From Candidatus Latescibacterota bacterium (lineage in GTDB: Bacteria; Latescibacterota; UBA2968; SICM01): a stretch of DNA of 64,000 nt. Both the position numbers and the translations under genes were made by a program. Under the pieces are notes generated by a model that searched no databases, was not told the origin of the DNA, and was given only the letters and a program-made list of their open reading frames with translations. The stretch spans positions 3,232,001 to 3,296,000 of the forward strand of contig CBDCJO010000002.1 in NCBI GenBank assembly GCA_965217865.1, written 5' to 3'. Below are positions 1-13,323 of the stretch, one piece after another. Each line of letters starts with the position of its first letter. Position 1 is the first letter of the stretch.

Positions 1-293
1 GATGTTGACCAGCACGTCCTCGACCTGAGGCCGGCCGGGTTGCTCAATTCGTCGGCGTCGGGCAATGCGGACGCTGCTGTCAGCAATACCGACAGCGATC
101 ACGACGGGGGCGTGGAGATCGTGAAGCAATCCAGTGCGACAATCATATAGGCGCTACGGGCGGCTTTGACGCAGCAATGCTTGCACACGGTGCCATACTC
201 GGCGACAACAGGGGAGCAGGGACCGGCACCGCGGCGGACGTTGTGGGGATCATGAGCGCCGCGCATATGGGTCCGCCCGAAGGGGACAGGCGA

Positions 294-3200
294 ATGAGCA
301 ACGGCTTTCAGAGAACGTTGAACCACATACGATCCATCGCCGATTCCGAAGCCCACAAGGGGCGCCTCTTCGAAAGGCTGATGAAAACGTACTTTGTGGA
401 GGACCCTCTCTACAAGGAACGTTTCTCCCACGTCTGGCTGTGGTCTGAATGGGCGGTCCTGCAGTCCGGTTTCGATGGCGCCGATACCGGTATCGATCTC
501 GTCGCCGAGGAGCGCGAAGGCGGTTACTGCGCCATTCAGTGCAAGTGCTACGCACCGGGCACGCAGATTTCGAAGCCTTACCTCGATTCGTTCATCGCCG
601 CCTCGGCCCGCGGTCCCTTCACCGCCCGCATCATGGTCGACACCGGCGATGAGTGGGGGCCGAACGCGGTCAAGACCATCGCTCCGCTGAAGCCCGCATG
701 CGCCGTGCTTCGCTTCGGCGATCTCGCAAGCCGACCGTTCGACTGGCCCGATCTGGTCCACGGCGAACCGGAAGCGCTGACGTATCGGCGCGAACTGTTC
801 AGCCTGCGCGCGCATCAGAAGACCGCACTCGACGACGTGACTGGAGGCTTCAAGACGCGTGATCGCGGCAAGTTGGTCATGGCTTGTGGCACGGGCAAGA
901 CCTTTGCAGCGCTACGCATCGCGGAAGCCGTTGCGGGTATCGGAGGCCGGGTGCTCTATCTGGTGCCGTCGATATCGCTGTTCCAGCAGTCGATGCGCGA
1001 ATGGGCGACGCAACGGGCGATCCCGCATCGCTACATCGGGATCTGCTCCGATACCCGTGCCGGTCGCAACGACGAGGACGCGTCGCTTCAGGAACTCGAG
1101 ATCCCAGTCACTACGGACCCGTCGATGATTTCCCGGGCGTTGCGGTTATCGCGCCCGGACGCGATAACCGTGGTCTTTTGCACCTATCACTCGCTCGGCA
1201 TCGTGGAGCGCGCGCAAGACGACGGAGCACCGGCGTTCGATATTGTTCTTTGCGACGAGGCCCACAGGACGACGGGCATCGAGCGTCCCGGCGATCCGAC
1301 CTCGCCCTTCGTGCTGGTTCACGACGCCCAAAGAATTCGGGCCGCGAAGCGCCTCTACATGACCGCCACGCCGCGTCTCTACACGGAAGGCGCGAAAGCG
1401 AAGGCGGCAAGCCATGAGACGGAAGTATTCTCCATGGACGATCCGGTGACCTATGGGCCGGAGTTTCACCGCCTTGCCTTCTCCCGGGCCGTCGAGCAGG
1501 ACCTGTTGTCCGACTACAAGGTGGTGGTTCTCGCCCTATCCGAGCAGCATGTCGACGCCGCGTTGCAGGCGCATCTGGCTTCGGGCGACAGCAAGATTAA
1601 CATCAGCGACGCGGCGAAGATCGTCGGTTGCTGGCGCGCGTTGCAGAACCCGGAGAACAAGCGCCCCGGCGATGGACCGATTTCCCATCTCACCCGTGCG
1701 ATCGCGTTCACCAACACCATTAAATTCTCGAAGCGCTTGGTGGCTCATTGGGACAACATCGTCGGGCAAGCCATCGAACAGCTGCCCGAGGCGGCGCGGC
1801 CCGGTGCCTTCCGCTGCGAGACGCGCCACGTCGATGGACAGGACCACGCGCTCGAACGCAAGCGCCGTATCGAATGGCTCAAGGGCGATTCCGGGGGAAC
1901 GTGCCGCATTCTCTCGAACGCCCGGTGTCTTTCCGAGGGCATCGACGTGCCCGCGCTGGACGCCGTGCTCTTCATGGACTCCCGAAAATCCCAGGTCGAC
2001 ATCGTGCAGGCCGTGGGCCGCGCCATGCGCAAGGCTGCGGGCAAGCAGTACGGCTACATCGTGCTTCCGGTCGCCGTTCCGGCGGGCGTCGATCCGGACA
2101 AAGCCCTCGACGACAACGAGCGGTTCGCCGTTGTCTGGGGCGTCTTGCGCGCACTGCGCTCGCACGATGACCGGTTCGATGCCGAGATCAACAAGATCGA
2201 CCTCAATGACACGCCGACGGATCGGATCATCTTCAGCGGCGACGGGATCGACGGACGGGGTGACGGTTCCAGCCCTCTCGAACTGCCCTTTCCGCCGCTG
2301 GATCTGCCGCCCGGAGCGATCTTCGCCAAGGTCGTCGAGAAATGCGGGGACCGGAAGTACTGGGAAACCTGGGCCAAGGATGTGGCCGACATCTTCTCGC
2401 GGCTCGTCCACCGGATCGAGAATCTTCTGGCCAGTTCCGATAACGAAACCCTGCGTGAATGGTTCGATGCCTTCCACGAGGAACTCAAGGTCTCGATCAA
2501 CGAGTCGATTACCCGCGACAACGCCATCGAAATGATGGCCCAGCACATCCTGACGCGGCCAGTCTTCGAGGCGCTGTTCGAGCATTACGATTTCGCCGCC
2601 GGAAACCCGGTGGCGCGGGCGCTGGACGCCTTGCGACAGGATTTCGGGGAGTTCGGGCTGGAGAACGAGACGCGGGATCTGGAGCGCTTCTACGAGAGCG
2701 TGCGCATGCGCGCTCTCGGCCTCGACAACAGCGAAGCGCGCCAGCACGTGCTGATGGAACTCTACGAGAAGTTCTTCGCCACGGCCCTCAAGAGGGACGC
2801 GGACCGCCTCGGCATCGTCTACACGCCGGTCGAGATCGTGGATTTCATCCTGAACAGCGCCGATCGCGTGGTGCGCCGGGAGTTCGGTCGAAGCCTGAGC
2901 GACGAGGACGTTCATGTCCTCGACCCGTTCACCGGCACCGGCATCTTTCTCGTCCGGCTGATCCAGTCCGCGCTAGTCCGGGAGTCCGATCTCGGGAGGA
3001 AATACCATGGAGAGTTTCACGCCAACGAGATCGTGCTGCTGGCCTACTACATCGCGGCCATTCACATCGAAGAAGCATTCCACGGGCGGCGCGGCCCCGA
3101 GAGCGCCTATGAGCCTTTCAAGGGCATCGTACTGACCGATACGTTCAATCTGCACACCGACAGGACCGGATTCCCGAAGAATTGGCTTCCGGTCAACAGC

Positions 3201-5066
3201 GCACGGGCGGAACGCCAGCAGGATCTACCGATCCAGGTCATCGTCGGTAATCCACCATGGTCGGCAGGGCAGAGGAGCTCGGCGGACGACAACCCCAACG
3301 TCGACTATCCCGAGCTTGAGAAGCGCATCGCAAAAACCTATGCGGCGCGCTCGAAGTCGACAAACAAGAACAGTCTCTATGACACCTACAAGATGGCAAT
3401 CCGCTGGGCGTCGGACCGGATCGACAAACAAGGCGTGATCGCACTCGTCACCAACGGCTCCTGGATCGACGGCAACGTGGACTCCGGCGTTCGCGCCTGC
3501 CTGGCCGAGGAGTTCAGTTCGATCTATGTTCTGAACCTGCGGGGCAATCAGCGGACTCAGGGAGAACGCTCGCGCCAGGAGGGCGGCAAGGTATTCGGCC
3601 AAGGCTCCCGTGCGCCGGTCGCGATCACGATCCTGGTCCGGAACCCGGAAGCCGTTCATGACGGCTGCCGCATCCTCTACCGCGATATTGGCGACTATCT
3701 CAGACGTGAGGAGAAGCTGGCGGTCCTGCGCGAGGCGGGGTCGATCGCTGGCATCGAGGATTGGCGAACGATCACGCCCGACCGGCATCACGACTGGATC
3801 GGCCAGCGAAGCGAGGAATTCCAAAAGCTCTATCCGGTGGGTTCAAAGACCGCGAAGGCCGGGAAGGTGGACGAGGCGATCTTCAAGCTGTTCAGCAACG
3901 GCTACTACACCGGAAGAGACGCCTACATCTACAACTTCTCCCGCAATGCTTGCGCCGAAAACGCCCGCAGAATGGTGGATGACTATCTCGGAGCCCTGCG
4001 GGAGTTGAGCAAATTCAAGAATGGATCACCCTCGGACGAGGTCATTCACGAGATCACAAGCCGCCACTCCGCAAACATTCGATGGGATCAGACACTCAAA
4101 AACAGACTGCCGGCGGGCAACCAAGCGGCCTTTGACGGAAAAAATATTCACAAAACCGTGTACCGTCCATTCATCGCCATAAACTGTTATGCCGATCAGG
4201 TCTTTGCAAAACGACCTGGTCCGAGTAGCTGGATGTTTCTTACGGGAAACCGGCAACAAAACCGTGCGATCTGCGTTCCGGGAATCGGATCGACCAAGCC
4301 GTTCTCGGCTCTCGTGGTCGACAAGATGCCGGATCTTGAACTGATATCGAAGGGCCAGTGTTTCCCTCGCTACCGGTATCGGGAGCGGGCGGAGGTGCAG
4401 CGTGAGCTTCCGGGGATCGAATCGGGCCGGGAGCGCATCGACAACATCTCAGACACGGTCTTGCGCGCCTTCCGCGTGCGTTACAACGACAACACGATCA
4501 CCAAGGACGCGATCTTCGATTACGTCTACGGCGTTCTGCATGCGTCTGCCTACCGGGAACGCTTCGCCAACGATCTGGCGAAGGAACTGCCGCGCACTCC
4601 GCTCGCGCCCGATTTCCATGCCTTTGCGAGAGCCGGGCATGAACTTGCGGAACTTCACCTGGGTTACGAGACCTGCGAGGAGTATTCGCTGGACGTTACG
4701 TTCACACAGCCCGGAGAACCGCGACCGGAGCAGTTCCGTATCGGTGAGCGGGCGATGCGATTTGGCGACGACGAAAGGGCGGTCCTCCACGTCAACGAGT
4801 ACATAAGGTTGGGCAACATTCCGGCGGCCGCACACCAGTATCAGGTCAACGGGCGGACGCCGCTGGAGTGGTTTATCGACCGCTACAAAATAACGCGGGA
4901 CAAGGAAAGCGGCATCGTCAACGATCCCAACGCCTGGTTCGAGGACCCACGGGATCTGGTCGTGGCGATCCGCCGCATCGTATATGTCAGCTTGGAGACG
5001 GCCCGCATCGTCGAGGGCTTGCCGGAGCCGTTCGATCCTGCGGAACGTCTGCAAGGAACCATATGA
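294..5066 (+). CDS. Type ISP restriction-modification enzyme (Mrr-type nuclease, SF2 helicase, N6-adenine MTase, TRD; LlaGI/LlaBIII family)
   Basis: DTGIDL...AIQCK nuclease motif, GTGKT, DEAH, TAT, QAVGRAMR helicase motifs, DPFTGTG and GNPPW MTase motifs; ATG at 294 preferred over TTG 177. Confidence 0.92.
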   Translation: MSNGFQRTLNHIRSIADSEAHKGRLFERLMKTYFVEDPLYKERFSHVWLWSEWAVLQSGFDGADTGIDLVAEEREGGYCAIQCKCYAPGTQISKPYLDSFIAASARGPFTARIMVDTGDEWGPNAVKTIAPLKPACAVLRFGDLASRPFDWPDLVHGEPEALTYRRELFSLRAHQKTALDDVTGGFKTRDRGKLVMACGTGKTFAALRIAEAVAGIGGRVLYLVPSISLFQQSMREWATQRAIPHRYIGICSDTRAGRNDEDASLQELEIPVTTDPSMISRALRLSRPDAITVVFCTYHSLGIVERAQDDGAPAFDIVLCDEAHRTTGIERPGDPTSPFVLVHDAQRIRAAKRLYMTATPRLYTEGAKAKAASHETEVFSMDDPVTYGPEFHRLAFSRAVEQDLLSDYKVVVLALSEQHVDAALQAHLASGDSKINISDAAKIVGCWRALQNPENKRPGDGPISHLTRAIAFTNTIKFSKRLVAHWDNIVGQAIEQLPEAARPGAFRCETRHVDGQDHALERKRRIEWLKGDSGGTCRILSNARCLSEGIDVPALDAVLFMDSRKSQVDIVQAVGRAMRKAAGKQYGYIVLPVAVPAGVDPDKALDDNERFAVVWGVLRALRSHDDRFDAEINKIDLNDTPTDRIIFSGDGIDGRGDGSSPLELPFPPLDLPPGAIFAKVVEKCGDRKYWETWAKDVADIFSRLVHRIENLLASSDNETLREWFDAFHEELKVSINESITRDNAIEMMAQHILTRPVFEALFEHYDFAAGNPVARALDALRQDFGEFGLENETRDLERFYESVRMRALGLDNSEARQHVLMELYEKFFATALKRDADRLGIVYTPVEIVDFILNSADRVVRREFGRSLSDEDVHVLDPFTGTGIFLVRLIQSALVRESDLGRKYHGEFHANEIVLLAYYIAAIHIEEAFHGRRGPESAYEPFKGIVLTDTFNLHTDRTGFPKNWLPVNSARAERQQDLPIQVIVGNPPWSAGQRSSADDNPNVDYPELEKRIAKTYAARSKSTNKNSLYDTYKMAIRWASDRIDKQGVIALVTNGSWIDGNVDSGVRACLAEEFSSIYVLNLRGNQRTQGERSRQEGGKVFGQGSRAPVAITILVRNPEAVHDGCRILYRDIGDYLRREEKLAVLREAGSIAGIEDWRTITPDRHHDWIGQRSEEFQKLYPVGSKTAKAGKVDEAIFKLFSNGYYTGRDAYIYNFSRNACAENARRMVDDYLGALRELSKFKNGSPSDEVIHEITSRHSANIRWDQTLKNRLPAGNQAAFDGKNIHKTVYRPFIAINCYADQVFAKRPGPSSWMFLTGNRQQNRAICVPGIGSTKPFSALVVDKMPDLELISKGQCFPRYRYRERAEVQRELPGIESGRERIDNISDTVLRAFRVRYNDNTITKDAIFDYVYGVLHASAYRERFANDLAKELPRTPLAPDFHAFARAGHELAELHLGYETCEEYSLDVTFTQPGEPRPEQFRIGERAMRFGDDERAVLHVNEYIRLGNIPAAAHQYQVNGRTPLEWFIDRYKITRDKESGIVNDPNAWFEDPRDLVVAIRRIVYVSLETARIVEGLPEPFDPAERLQGTI

Positions 5067-6551: not shown

Positions 6552-6817
6552 TTTTAAGGATACTGTATATAACACCGAGTGCCCGCCTCCGCTTCGCTCC
6601 GGAGGAACCTGCTGCGCAGGTTCGGGCACTCTTGAACTACATGCGGAAAGTCAAGAGCAAAGTTGACGATTTCGAGGTTGGATGAGATTTTTTATGCCGG
6701 TTTTCTCAGCGTCAAGGGGTGTAAAGTGGACATTCTTACTATGTTCGGAGCGCAGTTCGCCCTTATGGTGCAGGACCGGTCTTTGAAGAGGGGCGAAGCT
6801 CCCGTGTGGGGGGTGGT

Positions 6818-6985
6818 GTCTTCCGATACCAACTTACATCCGCGGCCGGCACTCTTGTTTGTGTGAGTAGGTGTGCCGGTCTTCGCGCATTTTCTAATCC
6901 GATCCAGGAAGACGGGGAGGCCTGCGGATCTGTTAGCCGAAGCGACTCCTATCGGAGCCCTCCTCTCAAGCCAGTTCTGCAGGCC
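6818..6985 (-). ncRNA. Candidate bridge RNA of IS110 element A
   Basis: Two stem-closed internal loops (6919-6985, 6818-6913) containing short matches to target and donor junctions. Confidence 0.55.
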
Positions 6986-7095
6986 GCCCCTGGCCGCCTT
7001 GGAAGGCGGCAGCTTGTGTAACCGGTCCGGCAGGAGACTGCACCGGATGTGAATCGAGCAGCGATGTCAAAGAGCGAGTGTGACCGCGGCAGCGG

Positions 7096-8427
7096 TCAGG
7101 CGGCGGCGCGAGCGCGCCGTCGGGGATGCTGCTTTTTCTTGTAGCGCTTCATGTAGCGCCTCTCGAGCGTTTTGAGGGATGCCGCGGGGTGGTCTCTCTC
7201 CTCGTAGAGACGATTTTCTCTGAGCAGGGCTACGATGAGCCGTAGGAGCTGGGACGAGGCGGCCACGATATTCTTGCGGTAGCACTTCTTCCTGAGCTCG
7301 CGTTCGAGGAAGCGGCGGCGGACCTGGGGCACGACCCGGGCGGTCTGTTCGGTCATCTGGTAGATGATTCGCCGCAGCCGGGGATTGCCGATCTTGCTCA
7401 TCCGCCTTTTGCCTTTGTACTTTCCGGAGTCGGCGATGCGCACGTTCGTGCCGGCGAGCTTCTCGATCTGTTTGAAGTGGGTGAAGCGGGTGGCCCCTCG
7501 CGTCTCCGCGGTAAATTGGGCAGCCAGGTTTTTGTTGATGTTGGGGATCGAGTCGACGATTTGGAAAGTCGGATCCTGCTGAGTGCGGGCGATCATCGCC
7601 TGCTCCACAGCTTTGAGTTGCGTCTCGGTCCGCCGGAGCGCCTCGATCCAGCCATTCAGGATGATGCGGAGGACATCTTCCTGGCCCTCGACCGGGATCC
7701 CGATGGAGGTCCGGGCCTCCTCCTTCAGCTTCTGCAGCGTCGCCACCCCGTAACTGCCTCTTGAGATCCGATGGATCTGGCGGCCCTCCTCTTCGATGTC
7801 AATTTCCTCGAAGTGGCGGGGCAAGAAATATCGCTCCAACAGGTAGCGGGAGGTCTTCGTACGAATGTTGACCGCGTGGAGGAACTCCGGGAAGACGCGT
7901 TCCATCAGAGACCGGGTGCGGAGCAGGGACTTTGTGAGGTCCTTCCGGAGCTTGTCGTAGGCGATTGAGAGCTGGTGCGCGGCCTCCATGTGAGGCTCGA
8001 ACGTCCTGAAGAGATCATAGCTTCCCTTCTGTGCGCTGTCGGCCACCAGAAAGGCATCCCTGGGATCCGACTTGGAGAAATCGCGGTGCATCATCGGTCT
8101 TGCGTGATACGTCGTGAGGGGGCTCACCAGCAGCACGCGATACCCCTTCCCCTGGAGGTAGTGGGCCAGGGTAACCCACAGATTGCAGGACGTCTCGATG
8201 GCCACCACCATCCGATCCGGCCCGCAATCTTTGATGCGTCGCTCCAGATGCTGCCAGAGGGTATGGTCATATCCCGCTCGCGTCACGGGGAATGAGAAGG
8301 CCCCGCCTTGCTGAAGTCCGGAGGGATCGAGCACCGACCCGCTGTGTTTTTCCTTGCCCGGATCGATCCCGAGGACGAAATTCTGGGAGATGGCCTGTCG
8401 TTTAAGGTGGAAGATTTTCGACTTCAT
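7096..8427 (-). CDS. IS110-family DEDD recombinase
   Basis: GID, IETS, KSDPRDA, DSGK, GNPRLR motifs all present. Confidence 0.95.
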   Translation of the reverse strand: MKSKIFHLKRQAISQNFVLGIDPGKEKHSGSVLDPSGLQQGGAFSFPVTRAGYDHTLWQHLERRIKDCGPDRMVVAIETSCNLWVTLAHYLQGKGYRVLLVSPLTTYHARPMMHRDFSKSDPRDAFLVADSAQKGSYDLFRTFEPHMEAAHQLSIAYDKLRKDLTKSLLRTRSLMERVFPEFLHAVNIRTKTSRYLLERYFLPRHFEEIDIEEEGRQIHRISRGSYGVATLQKLKEEARTSIGIPVEGQEDVLRIILNGWIEALRRTETQLKAVEQAMIARTQQDPTFQIVDSIPNINKNLAAQFTAETRGATRFTHFKQIEKLAGTNVRIADSGKYKGKRRMSKIGNPRLRRIIYQMTEQTARVVPQVRRRFLERELRKKCYRKNIVAASSQLLRLIVALLRENRLYEERDHPAASLKTLERRYMKRYKKKQHPRRRARAAA

Positions 8428-8597
8428 CGTATACCTCCAGCGTTGAGGGTTGAGTTTGCTTGCGCTTGCCGAATCTTAAGACACCTTGCCTTGCAAGGGA
8501 AGATTCAGCCCCTCAACGCTGTTTTTTCCTCCTTTACTCAATATAGAAATCGTTATCCGGCATAGGGGTTCGAAGGGGAAATGATTTCGTTGTTGTA

Positions 8598-9002
8598 GTG
8601 GGCAAACATCCAGTATCGGAGCAACAGATGGATCCGAGGGTGGTCAGACATTACGAGACGGTCAAAGACGAGGCCACTCGCCTAGCCCAGGGAACTTGCC
8701 GAGTGGAGTTCGAAAGGACGAAAGAGGTTCTGCTGAGATACTTGCCGGGCCCTCCGGCTCAAATTCTCGACATCGGAGGTGGGCCAGGTGCTTATTCATT
8801 CTGGCTGGCGGAAAAATCGTACAAAGTCCATCTGATTGACATTGTGCCCCTCCACGTGGAGCAGGCCAAGAGCAGGGAAGGTGGGGCACTTCTTGCCAGC
8901 ATCGGCCAGGGAGACGCAAGTAGACTCGACTTCGAGTCTGACTCGATGGATGTGGTGCTGCTGCTCGGTCCACATCTTCTGACGATGGCCAAGAAGAAGT
9001 GA
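8598..9002 (+). pseudogene. Class I SAM methyltransferase cassette with large in-frame internal deletion
   Basis: LDIGGGPG motif; LLLGP joined directly to C-terminal HLLTMAKKK; cassette ends complementary (TAGGGGTTCG / CGAACCCCTA). Confidence 0.75.
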
Positions 9003-9071
9003 AGACTGGTGCTGCCTGGCTGCCCGCGTCTGACTAGACTGGAGACCCCGAACCCCTACGTCCGCCTAACA

Positions 9072-10703
9072 CATATTAAAGGCCCCGGGTCAAGAAAAAA
9101 AGACTCCTCCATCACGATTTTCACCGTTTTTTTGCGACCCTAACGTTCGGGGCGTGCAATGAGCCGATCCGAAGAGGTTTGGCGATGTTCGGATCTTTGT
9201 CAGTCGTCGGTCTGACTTGATTTTCACAAACCGGGCTAGATGTGAGCCATCTGCACCAAACACGTATCGGGAATCAAGCGCCTCTCACGGTATACTGTGG
9301 AGCGCCCTGGGAGAGGCATTGTCCTCTCCCTCCAGAAAATAATCGGTACCCCTTGAGTCCCAATCAAGAAGGATGGCTGTTCTCCCCTTTTATGAGGGGG
9401 AACGCCAGTTAGGTTCGGGTTCATCGCGGGGGCAGACGGACTGACTGTCTCAGATCCGCTCATCTATGTTCTAAATAAGGGGTGAAGGCGGCTTCCCAAT
9501 CAAGCCGATGAGCTGGGCTATTGTCCGGACGTTGCCCTGCCAGTTAGGCGCCGGGTTAACCGCCCCACCCATTATGCTACAAACCGTTTCTCGTCGAATG
9601 CCTGGCCGTTTTTGAGCATTTGGTAGGCGGCCACGCCGAATTTGTGAGCGATGACGCTCTTGGCTTTTCCCGGACCTTGTTTGCTTTTGAGCTTCTCGTA
9701 GTATCTATTGATCGGTTCTGACCATCGCTGGGCGACGAGGATGATTTCTGAGAAGGCCCACTTTAGGTGTGGGTTGCCGATTTTGTTATTCCCGTCCTTT
9801 GTCTTCTTTCCAGCGGACTCTCTCTCGACTTTGATCAGCCGGCTGTAGGAGGAGAAGGCTGAAGCGGATTTGAACCGTTCAATCGTGTGGATTTCATACA
9901 GGATGGTCATGGCCAACATCTCCCCAAGTCCGGGAACCGTCATCAGGATAGACAGGACATTGCGATCGTGATGTTTGGCCTGTGCCAAGACTTGCTTCTC
10001 GACTTTGTAGATCATTTTGTCCAGGGAGTCAACCAGGTCCAGATCGCAGTCCACAGACATACTCAGATCTGGGTCGGCCAGACGTTCGCACAGCTTTCTC
10101 CTGTTGCTCTTCTTTTTGACCTGGTCGCTGAGAGGATCCAGGATAGCTTGCTGAGAGAAGGTGTTCTGGATGTGGGTGTAACACTCAGCCCGTAAGGCCA
10201 CAAACCGGTGTCTTCGCCGGAGCAGGTCCCGGGTTGCCCGCATCTCTTGCGGATAGGCATAGGCCATCGGGAACAGGTTGCAGCGCATCAGCTCAGCCAG
10301 CATTCTGGAATCGAGACGGTCGTTCTTTTTCTTGCCCCCATGGATCGCCTTCATATACAGGGCGTGTCCCAGGTAGAATGGAATCCCGGCCTTGTGACAC
10401 CCGTCAGCCAGCCAGTACCAGTTGAAGGTTGACTCCACCCCGACGGCGATGCTACCGAGGTGAGTTTCCAGCACCTGCAGCAGGAGCTTGAAGTCGTTTT
10501 TCAGGTTGCGCTGGAACACAATCTCTCCCATCTTGTCCATGATGCAGACAAACATCGTTCTGGCGTGGAGATCGATGCCACAGAAATAGTTCGAGTCGAT
10601 CCTTGCGTATTGCATAAGGCCCTCCTGTGGGAGAAAGGTGATTGAGATATCCGGATCTCAATTATAACCTCTCCTGACAACGAGGGCCTTTATATTAATA
10701 TCA
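9072..10703 (-). mobile_element. IS110/IS1111-type element B with sub-terminal IRs and 500 bp 3' non-coding end
   Basis: TAAAGGCCC / GGGCCTTTA sub-terminal IRs; CA core at both junctions. Confidence 0.88.
9572..10615 (-). CDS. IS110/IS1111-family DEDD recombinase
   Basis: GIDLH, VEST, KNDRLDS, ESAG, GNPHLK motifs. Confidence 0.95.
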   Translation of the reverse strand: MQYARIDSNYFCGIDLHARTMFVCIMDKMGEIVFQRNLKNDFKLLLQVLETHLGSIAVGVESTFNWYWLADGCHKAGIPFYLGHALYMKAIHGGKKKNDRLDSRMLAELMRCNLFPMAYAYPQEMRATRDLLRRRHRFVALRAECYTHIQNTFSQQAILDPLSDQVKKKSNRRKLCERLADPDLSMSVDCDLDLVDSLDKMIYKVEKQVLAQAKHHDRNVLSILMTVPGLGEMLAMTILYEIHTIERFKSASAFSSYSRLIKVERESAGKKTKDGNNKIGNPHLKWAFSEIILVAQRWSEPINRYYEKLKSKQGPGKAKSVIAHKFGVAAYQMLKNGQAFDEKRFVA

Positions 10704-10779
10704 CGCCGCTTGCGGCTCGTGCCTGCGGCACTCGACAAAACCCACTCCGTGGGTTCGCAAGCGGCAAACGTTATACGAC

Positions 10780-11531
10780 ATGAAAGAACAGAGATACAAG
10801 GGTGTTTTCTTTGACCTCTATGGAACGCTTCTCGTCTATGGCGACATGGAAAGAGCCTGGGAGGAGTGGTTGGACTCTATACTCGCTTCCATGCGCAAGA
10901 ATGGCGCGGAGATTGAAAGAGATTCTCTGAGAGAGATCTGCAGTGGTTTTTTCAACAAACCAGAACCTCCGCGTGAGAGCAACCACACAATCTATGAGCG
11001 ACGCATTGGCGCTCTCGGTGAGCAGCTTGGGATTACTCTGGAGGGGTCTGAAAAGACTGCGATTTCGGATCATAGTGTGCACTCTTGGACAAAGTACACC
11101 ACCGTCGACCCCGAGGCGACGCGGCTACTTGGCGAAGTTCATGGCTCGATGCGTACCGCACTGATATCCAATTTCATCATCCGTCTCACGTGCGATCTCG
11201 ACTTCAGGAATCGGGGTTCGAGCGGTATTTCGACGTTGTGGTGATATCAGGTGAGGTTGGGATCAAGAAGCCCAGTCCGGAAATCTTCTCAATTGCGATT
11301 GCGGAGACCGGATTGCAGCCGAGTGAGGTCGCGTTCGTCGGTGATTCGATCGACGACGACATGATGGGGGCAGCCGCAGCTGGTCTCACGCCGATCCTGA
11401 TCGACAGGCACGATGGTAAGCGGAGGGTTGCGTCCGACTACGGTGCGGATCATGACTCGAAACCTCGTGGGCCAGACCCCATGATGGTAATTGCGTCACT
11501 GGGAGGCCTACGAGAGATTTTGTTCGATTAG
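10780..11531 (+). pseudogene. HAD hydrolase cassette, frameshifted near 11177
   Basis: FDLYGTL in one frame, KPSPEIF and VGDS in the other; one added G restores SNFDHP. Confidence 0.85.
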
Positions 11532-12331: not shown

Positions 12332-12412
12332 GGGTAGCATGTGGCTCACGGCTCCGCTGCGTTGCAGCTTCGGAGGATAAGACGCGGGTTCGTGAGCCAC
12401 TGAAGGTTATGA
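12332..12412 (+). other. attC site 4, degenerate shortened copy of attC5
   Basis: R'' mutated to GGGTAGC; 32 bp missing between CCGCTGCG repeats; R' GTTATGA. Confidence 0.85.
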
Positions 12413-12443
12413 GAAATGCGATTAAAAGCAGGAGATTGATCAT

Positions 12444-13210: not shown

Positions 13211-13323
13211 TCATAACATGTGGCTCACGGCTCCGCTGCGCTCCGCACCAACCCGCTTCCTCCCCCGCTGCGTTGCAGCTTCGGAGGATAAGACGCGGGT
13301 TCGTGAGCCACTGAACGTTATGT
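13211..13323 (+). other. attC site 5
   Basis: TCATAAC, GTGGCTCACG/CGTGAGCCAC stem, GTTATGT. Confidence 0.9.

Follow-up and report, generated by a model that had tools for sequence, protein, structure and literature searches.

The window, a 64,000-nt stretch of DNA from a Candidatus Latescibacterota genome, contains attC-like sites at approximately 6567, 9064, 11543, and 13211, and at the second of these the attC is interrupted by a 1632 bp IS110-family element on the minus strand (Table 1). The ends of the element were fixed by comparing copies, as the genome holds seven identical full copies and two full copies at 94.6% identity, along with seven partial matches. The dinucleotide CA is present at both junctions (9070-9071 and 10702-10703), and depending on the assignment of the A of this core the element may also be written as 9072-10703. 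An earlier, sequence-only reading of this locus had given the span as 9064-10776, which takes in both halves of the attC site; the element proper is confined to 9071-10702. Its 347-aa product (stop codon at 9572-9574) matches both domains of IS110-family transposases, PF01548 at 62.6 bits and PF02371 at 68.9 bits, each above the cut-off, and the nearest solved structures are those of IS621 (8wt6; E 6e-8) and ISCro4 (9t56; E 8e-8).

Downstream of the transposase gene lies a non-coding tail of 500 nt. The sub-terminal repeat is 12 bp long, with 9/12 bases matching and a 9-bp perfect core, in a 7 + 3 spacing relative to the ends. When the ends are joined in silico, TTGACC and GATATT come to stand 17 nt apart, forming a predicted junction promoter. 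The contigs of four sequencing runs, which are informative for presence only, contained neither an empty site nor a circle joint, and Rfam gave no match within the window. Homologs of the element are scarce among the relatives of this genome (1/60). Among the other copies, a variant copy at C2 2463919 stops exactly at the DNA of loop 2 (see below), where GTTAGGT resembles an attC core site, with an integrase-type crossover, another insertion, or a deletion as candidate causes, and a copy at C2 1604244-1604718 has an internal deletion, with its right end joined to the gene interior at a short shared AAGGCCCC-like stretch.

Table 1. Features of the attC-inserted element and its surroundings (window coordinates; guides and loops are predictions)
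Feature	Position	Strand	Basis
Neighbouring IS110-family element, 443 aa, distantly related	6636..8555	-	just before R' box of preceding attC
attC R'' box GCCTAAC (left target; last C is first core base)	9064..9070	+	sequence; rejoined site folds as hairpin
IS110-family element	9071..10702	-	common ends of seven identical and two full 94.6% copies
Right sub-terminal inverted repeat, with 3-nt extension 9071-9073	9074..9085	-	9/12 bases match left repeat
TTGACC, predicted -35 box	9088..9093	-	17 nt before GATATT formed across circle junction (in silico)
Right donor guide GAUACG + UG, then handshake UU complementary to AA of R''	9259..9268	-	handshake fits target in 63/74 types
Left donor guide AUUAUUUUC	9335..9343	-	7/9 to left end of element
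Loop-2 right arm CUUCU + UG	9365..9371	-	right target followed weakly
Loop-2 left arm AACCUAAC, containing second GTTAGG (9408-9413)	9408..9415	-	follows only four core-proximal target bases
Loop-1 hairpin, predicted target-binding loop (seekRNA-like domain)	9480..9570	-	consensus and single folds
Right target guide CGGCU + core UG, then handshake AU (first two donor bases)	9499..9507	-	handshake in 40/44 loci
Left target guide GCGCCUAAC (8-mer plus one base)	9543..9551	-	covaries with targets in genome and 76 element types
DEDD transposase/recombinase, 347 aa	9572..10615	-	motifs GID 13, GVE 59, KND 97, RLD 100, ESAG 266
Left sub-terminal inverted repeat, with 7-nt extension 10696-10702	10684..10695	-	sequence
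Remainder of attC, ending in R' GTTATAC (10770-10776)	10703..10776	+	sequence; hairpin of rejoined site

The target on the attC top strand reads CGCCTAA-CA-CGCCG, with CGCCTAAC as the left flank (9063-9070). The element splits attC at R'' around the CA core and lies antisense to the cassettes; removing it in silico restores an attC-like hairpin, GCCTAAC...GTTATAC, over 9064-10776. Eight of the nine full copies in the genome lie within attC or attC-like sequence. At five sites, an attC is rebuilt when the flanks are rejoined, its R'-like box lying no more than 160 nt away; at one site the R' end is taken up by a fragment of the neighbouring element, and at two others the flank begins like an attC left arm with no good R'. 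One full copy (C2 2534054-2535685) instead lies at the 3' end of a putative glycosyltransferase gene, in a guide-like sequence (CGCTTAA-CA-GGGCC) around which no attC hairpin was found.

No TIGR02249 (integron integrase) match above the cut-off was found in this genome, a 96%-complete assembly in which the top score was 117.7 of 265 bits, and the arrays are therefore provisionally read as CALINs in this assembly. That top match (C2 ~1657178-1658351) is a tyrosine recombinase gene split over two frames, near an attC-like site at 1655214. Several sites, at 12335-12413 and 13211-13323 in the window and at C2 527766, 2033651, and 4234020, form a near-identical attC family (ATGTGGCTCACGG...CCGTGAGCCACTGAAC), and the right spacer of attCs in this genome is longer than in textbook attCs. 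The cassette genes on either side of the element appear damaged, with a methyltransferase (8598-9002) ending at 134 aa and a HAD hydrolase (10780-11531) split over two frames. Upstream of the cassette array, an ORF of 1629 aa (177-5066) has helicase-like and methyltransferase-like motifs and resembles a fused restriction-modification enzyme.

The preceding attC is occupied by a different element, encoding a 443-aa protein and inserted just before the GTTA of R', a position found in the window and for the majority of those copies that have a right end. Consecutive attC sites thus carry two different elements at opposite ends of the site, both antiparallel to the cassettes, just as the sequence-only reading had described. 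The same reading had called the two elements unrelated; their proteins align only over 84 aa at 27% identity, but both belong to the IS110 family. Elsewhere in the genome (C2 ~1983190-1985350), a single attC is occupied by both, with the 347-aa element inserted at R'' and a fragment of the 443-aa one at the R' end. The 443-aa element has a long downstream tail and no clear 2-nt core at its junctions; a TAACAGAT box in its tail, common to one homolog (G033, L220), offers only a hint of a guide. Its homologs among the relatives of the genome number 1/167.

The tail of the 347-aa element contains an 8-mer, reading GTTAGGCG on the plus strand and CGCCUAAC on the transposase-sense strand (9543-9550), whose minus-strand sequence is identical to the left target flank. 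It begins at the 22nd base past the stop codon (offset 21), where the sequence-only reading had placed it when proposing it as a guide for the R'' box. Dinucleotide-shuffled versions of the 501-nt non-coding end contained this 8-mer, on one strand or the other, in 15 of 1500 cases (~1%), and the covariation described below is stronger evidence than these odds. The predicted fold of the tail has three protein-binding loops, the last of which, the donor loop, is multi-branched. Judging from the matches to target and ends, the guides are arranged as in IS621, with left and right guides and handshake bases, and the matches follow the order seen in IS1111.

To compare guides with targets across homologs, we fetched 160 loci, a further 31 from eight of their genomes, 16 others, and two plasmid loci. 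Right ends were placed by motif-based parsing, using a TTGAC-like box 16-17 nt before the core, inverted-repeat end-finding being too noisy. The right end was parsed in 135 loci and the loops were placed in 117; 115 of these had seven target bases and represent 76 types at 34-100% protein identity, and right-target counts come from 44 loci. Loci fetched twice, with unclear loops, or with too little flank were left out. Two loci in which loop 1 is repeated (L002 and L003) contributed one copy each, the best-fitting one in the case of L002.

Agreement between loop 1 and its own target extends over each of the seven left positions, at 0.60-0.98 per position versus 0.32-0.47 when shuffled (76 types, 115 insertions), and over each of the five right positions, at 0.61-0.98 versus 0.28-0.48 (44 loci); these rates may be somewhat inflated, because conserved motifs were used to place the loops by eye, with the targets visible. 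In tree-independent pairs, changes in the same direction outweigh those in the opposite direction by 58.7 to 8.0 at distal and 58.3 to 0.1 at proximal positions, sums taken over positions and letters together rather than over independent trials. The loop-1 handshake equals the first two bases of the donor in 40/44 loci, and the donor-loop handshake complements the last two bases of the target in 63/74 types (shuffle mean 18.7, maximum 30). Matches of the right donor guide, by comparison, are circular, since right ends were picked by their match to this guide. As the 8-mer is conserved in position and covaries with its target, matching its own flank at all seven positions among the 76 types, the proposal that it guides insertion at R'' holds.

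Targets ending in AA (the attC type) fill two deep groups of the homolog tree and other targets a third, though the tree, drawn by FastTree with a midpoint root, gives no order of events. Relatives with other guides occupy matching sites of other sequence. We considered whether the Blastocatellia and related insertions lie at R' in sense orientation, and rejected this reading, as their flanks read as attC tops from R''. Among AA-class insertions, a gene on the opposite strand ends at the right-end box in 32/59, with the alternative in 8 and neither in 22; the Blastocatellia genome alone was mixed on this gene-end test, and a hairpin test gave no call in 51/58. Two Chitinispirillaceae MAGs have two to three copies of loop 1 ahead of loop 2; in L003 the copies carry the same guide, and in L002 their guides differ, possibly forming a natural guide array. 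In a Vibrio campbellii plasmid (NC_022271.1, 68-3000), a homolog of the element adjoins an IS4321-like IS110-family element.

The genome itself contains a reprogrammed pair. In the 95% variant, the left arm reads CAGCUAAC rather than CGCCUAAC and the right arm CGCUG-UG rather than CGGCU-UG, while the loop-2 arms are unchanged. Although the samples are small (seven window-type and four variant targets), targets starting with CG make up 6/7 for the window type and 0/4 for the variant (Fisher p 0.015), as compared with 15/52 empty attC-like sites (p 0.006 versus window-type), and one variant site, CATCTAA-CA-CAGCG, matches the new right arm at 5/5 positions. The empty sites were collected with a looser attC finder, two other finders having overlooked obvious sites; with 2 hits in 5 Mb of shuffled single strand, ~5/52 of its sites may be false. 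As this finder forces TAACA, the comparison is limited to the distal four bases, which in occupied targets fit the guide better than do those of empty sites (p 0.001). At C2 372332, a variant copy is shifted by 2 nt within a CACA run, and the unshifted register fits the variant right guide 5/5.

The sequence-only reading had treated pairing of the 8-mer within a stem as a point against a guide, and the single-sequence fold of the free RNA partly goes that way: the CGCC half of the 8-mer pairs with the right arm, at an unpaired probability of 0-0.5. Holding every guide open in this fold would cost 13 kcal/mol, and across 52 types the left guide has a mean unpaired probability of 0.49. In contrast, the consensus of eight short-loop homologs (the window not among them) leaves both arms unpaired in an internal loop between stems; 7/14 flanking pairs are changed on both sides, as seen in 1/500 shuffles, with the structure derived from the same alignment. 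RNAalifold found no consensus for 16 mixed homologs, and paired three distal bases for the 4 closest. The CGCC pairing joins the two guide arms to each other and is not conserved.

The ends, CA core, position, orientation, and copy number of the element, like the covariation of the four guide arms and both handshake pairs, can be read from sequence. Together they make it likely that this element inserts at the R'' edge of attC by RNA guidance, with loop 1 choosing the site and the last loop reading the ends of the element itself. By analogy with work on IS621 and ISEc11/ISKpn4, the element would excise as a circle, the joined ends would form a promoter, and the tail RNA would bind the transposase. 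Loop 1 would then pair with both strands of NNNYTAA-CA-NNNNN, strands would be exchanged at CA, and the donor loop would read the element's own ends. attC sites would be targeted because the guide is most often matched by R'' with the A that follows it (TAACA), and the choice of one attC over another would fall to the distal guide bases.

The second GTTAGG, which the sequence-only reading had noticed near 9408, is indeed present at 9408-9413, in the left arm of loop 2. Across homologs, loop 2 matches target positions -4 to -1 at 0.68-0.91 (z 6.5-7.8) and is at chance at -7 to -5. This tracking holds across unrelated targets (TAA, GGT, and TGC classes), and in independent pairs amounts to 35.1 versus 1.9 at proximal and 14.4 versus 20.9 at distal positions. 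The idea of an invariant loop 2 was rejected. Over 115 insertions, the left target is fitted better by loop 1 in 87, by loop 2 in 3, and equally in 25, and at positions that distinguish the two loops the target agrees with loop 1 in 232 cases, with loop 2 in 31, and with neither in 57. As loop 2 tracks only the four core-proximal bases and so rarely fits better, it does not appear to hold a second address. Loop 2 is a conserved loop that probably reads DNA.

What might such a loop do? We tentatively suggest that loop 2 may work with the adjacent donor loop in excision, a step that would gain from tolerating imperfect flanks, and that loop 1 would serve as the search guide for insertion. In favor of this role, circle formation by ISEc11 requires target flanks (PMC11187229), and RNAs with only the target loop dominate in another IS110 element (10.1101/2025.10.25.684509). 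Against it, excision of IS621 is reported to be independent of the target loop and of a target match (10.64898/2026.08.31.748434). Handshake pairs with the donor average 0.86 for loop 2 and 1.88 for loop 1 (42 loci). The loop-2 handshakes show no fit to the target side (mean 0.24 pairs), and loop 2 of the present element retains a full AU handshake (2/42 loci, this element and its variant). The last two points also count against a role in excision here.

Alternatively, loop 2 could be a relic or a purely structural hairpin that pairs with no DNA and is kept similar to loop 1 by short-tract gene conversion. Here, the two loops have a 10-mer in common; in one shallow clade (L052, L076, and L209) loop 2 lags behind loop 1, and in L045 it did not follow a change of target. 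Yet the loops resemble each other only over the 5-6 bases that precede a UGG motif and show no excess similarity in the flanking stems, a pattern that speaks against recent duplication; loop 2 could be placed in 117 loci, down to 34% protein identity; and its right arm also follows the right target, if weakly (z up to 4). We thus consider a relic unlikely.

Less likely still is a two-address element, in which loop 2 would also work as a target guide and so extend the range across degenerate R'' boxes. The shared motifs of the loops and the full handshake of loop 2 in this element would suit such a role, as would the insertions that it fits better or equally well and the natural repetition of loop 1 in L002 and L003. 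However, loop 2 is at chance at its distal positions, where independent pairs do not change in the same direction, its handshake agrees with the donor in just 6/44 loci, it stayed unchanged while loop 1 was reprogrammed in this genome, and at none of the seven window-type sites is it better on the left side. Finally, that the protein reads the attC hairpin and the 8-mer is incidental seems very improbable, despite the location of 8/9 full copies and the specificity that a target stem-loop adds for ISPpu10 (10.64898/2026.03.19.712850), as changes in the guide are accompanied by changes in the target both in this genome and in the homolog tree, relatives whose guides differ are found at correspondingly different target sequences, and one copy lies where no attC was found; attC structure may contribute as a second filter alongside RNA guidance by loop 1.

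How does this element relate to those already known at attC? Like the IS1111-attC group (ISKpn4, ISPst6, ISPa25, and ISPa21), whose members insert near the 5' end of attC in antisense orientation (PMC3001079), it combines an IS110-family transposase with a downstream non-coding region, has 7 + 3 extensions, places the top-strand match 5' of the bottom-strand match, and likewise lies close to the 5' end of attC, running against the cassettes. The IS1111 group and its attC seekRNAs are set out in PMC11187229, where the repeats are by definition 11-13 bp, sub-terminal, perfect or nearly so, and flanked by 7-bp and 3-bp extensions. The layout of the present element agrees in its 500-nt downstream tail, its 347-aa protein (330-350 aa in the definition), and the order of matches. 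The sequence-only reading had called it IS1111-type, which is apt for the ends and RNA layout; the protein, in contrast, is ISGsu4-like. Identity to the protein at the ISPa21 locus is 71/347 (20%), background for a global alignment, and to IS4321 63/347, also background and short of a full-length relationship with the IS1111 group. In tblastn searches, the plasmid records matched by this protein numbered 316, led by Rhizobium, as compared with at least 5000, led by Klebsiella, for a query matching IS4321, IS5075, and ISEc11.

The cut point also differs. ISKpn4 and ISPst6 cut at AA*CG, 6 nt 3' of R'' (PMC13604230, Table 1), and in pME-1a, where the IS after smr was named ISPa21 (PMC7232449), the cut is likewise 6 nt further 3' than in the present element, which is cut at the edge of R'' and spacer. 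The sequence-only reading had suggested comparing the insertion position with described IS1111-attC elements, and the two do not coincide. The tail is ~260 nt in the IS1111-attC group, whereas here it is 500 nt and includes the extra target-type loop. The nearest named relative, at 35% identity, carries the RefSeq label 'IS110-like element ISGsu4 family transposase'. The source data of PMC11187229 class ISGsu4 as 'IS110', and in the matrix of supplement file 6 it is 17% identical to ISPst6, ISKpn4, and ISPa21. With ISGsu4-like elements it shares a clade, a TG core, similar ends, and, as in L209, the three-loop layout, while guide and target sequence differ from those of L209. The element is therefore outside the described IS1111-attC group, though it works like an IS1111-attC seekRNA element. 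Given the background identity to ISPa21 and the kinship with ISGsu4-like elements, its attC targeting likely arose independently of that group.

Two other systems invite comparison. With IS621 and ISCro4 (IS622), this element shares left and right guides for both target and donor, a core of 2 nt, and handshake bases whose pairing follows strand exchange, but their bridge RNA is upstream, with two loops and a CT core (PMC11208160; PMC13626964), whereas here the RNA would be downstream, with three loops and a CA/TG core. Group IIC-attC introns likewise insert at R'' on the attC bottom strand, in antisense orientation, and also occur in CALINs; their site, TTGT/T (PMC7923331; PMC3001079), is one to two bases from the core of this element. 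Unlike it, they are retrohoming ribozymes with a reverse transcriptase, with no ancestry or chemistry in common. The literature searched, which included 10.1101/2025.05.14.653916, PMC11616780, 10.64898/2026.10.21.760802, and supplement file 1 of PMC11187229, contained no paper on the RNA or targets of ISGsu4-like elements, and no description of a three-loop bridge RNA or of such elements at attC; figures, bioRxiv supplements, or ISfinder notes might show either.

As RNA-guided targeting of attC by IS110-family elements was already known, the core claim is not new, and the mechanism is known in kind; what sets this element apart is its lineage, its cut point, and its additional loop. That a lineage no closer to ISPa21 than background identity also targets attC, though at another base, suggests that both have converged on the single motif conserved among integron cassettes. 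The natural reprogramming pair in one genome, with several targets each, provides a test set for guide rules, and a conserved extra loop that covaries with exactly the core-proximal target bases does so across unrelated targets. For the host, with R'' parted from L'' by the element, the cassettes would be expected to be frozen in place. If loop 2 controls excision, it would bear on how bridge recombinases set direction, which is relevant to genome-writing tools. A broader and more doubtful possibility is that the ISGsu4-like clade as a whole, which would be widespread, uses a full-length target loop for insertion and a four-base target loop, next to the donor loop, for excision, and that one of its branches reached attC independently, near the base used by group IIC introns. 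If true, this division of labor between loops would be a natural RNA solution to the problem of recombination directionality.
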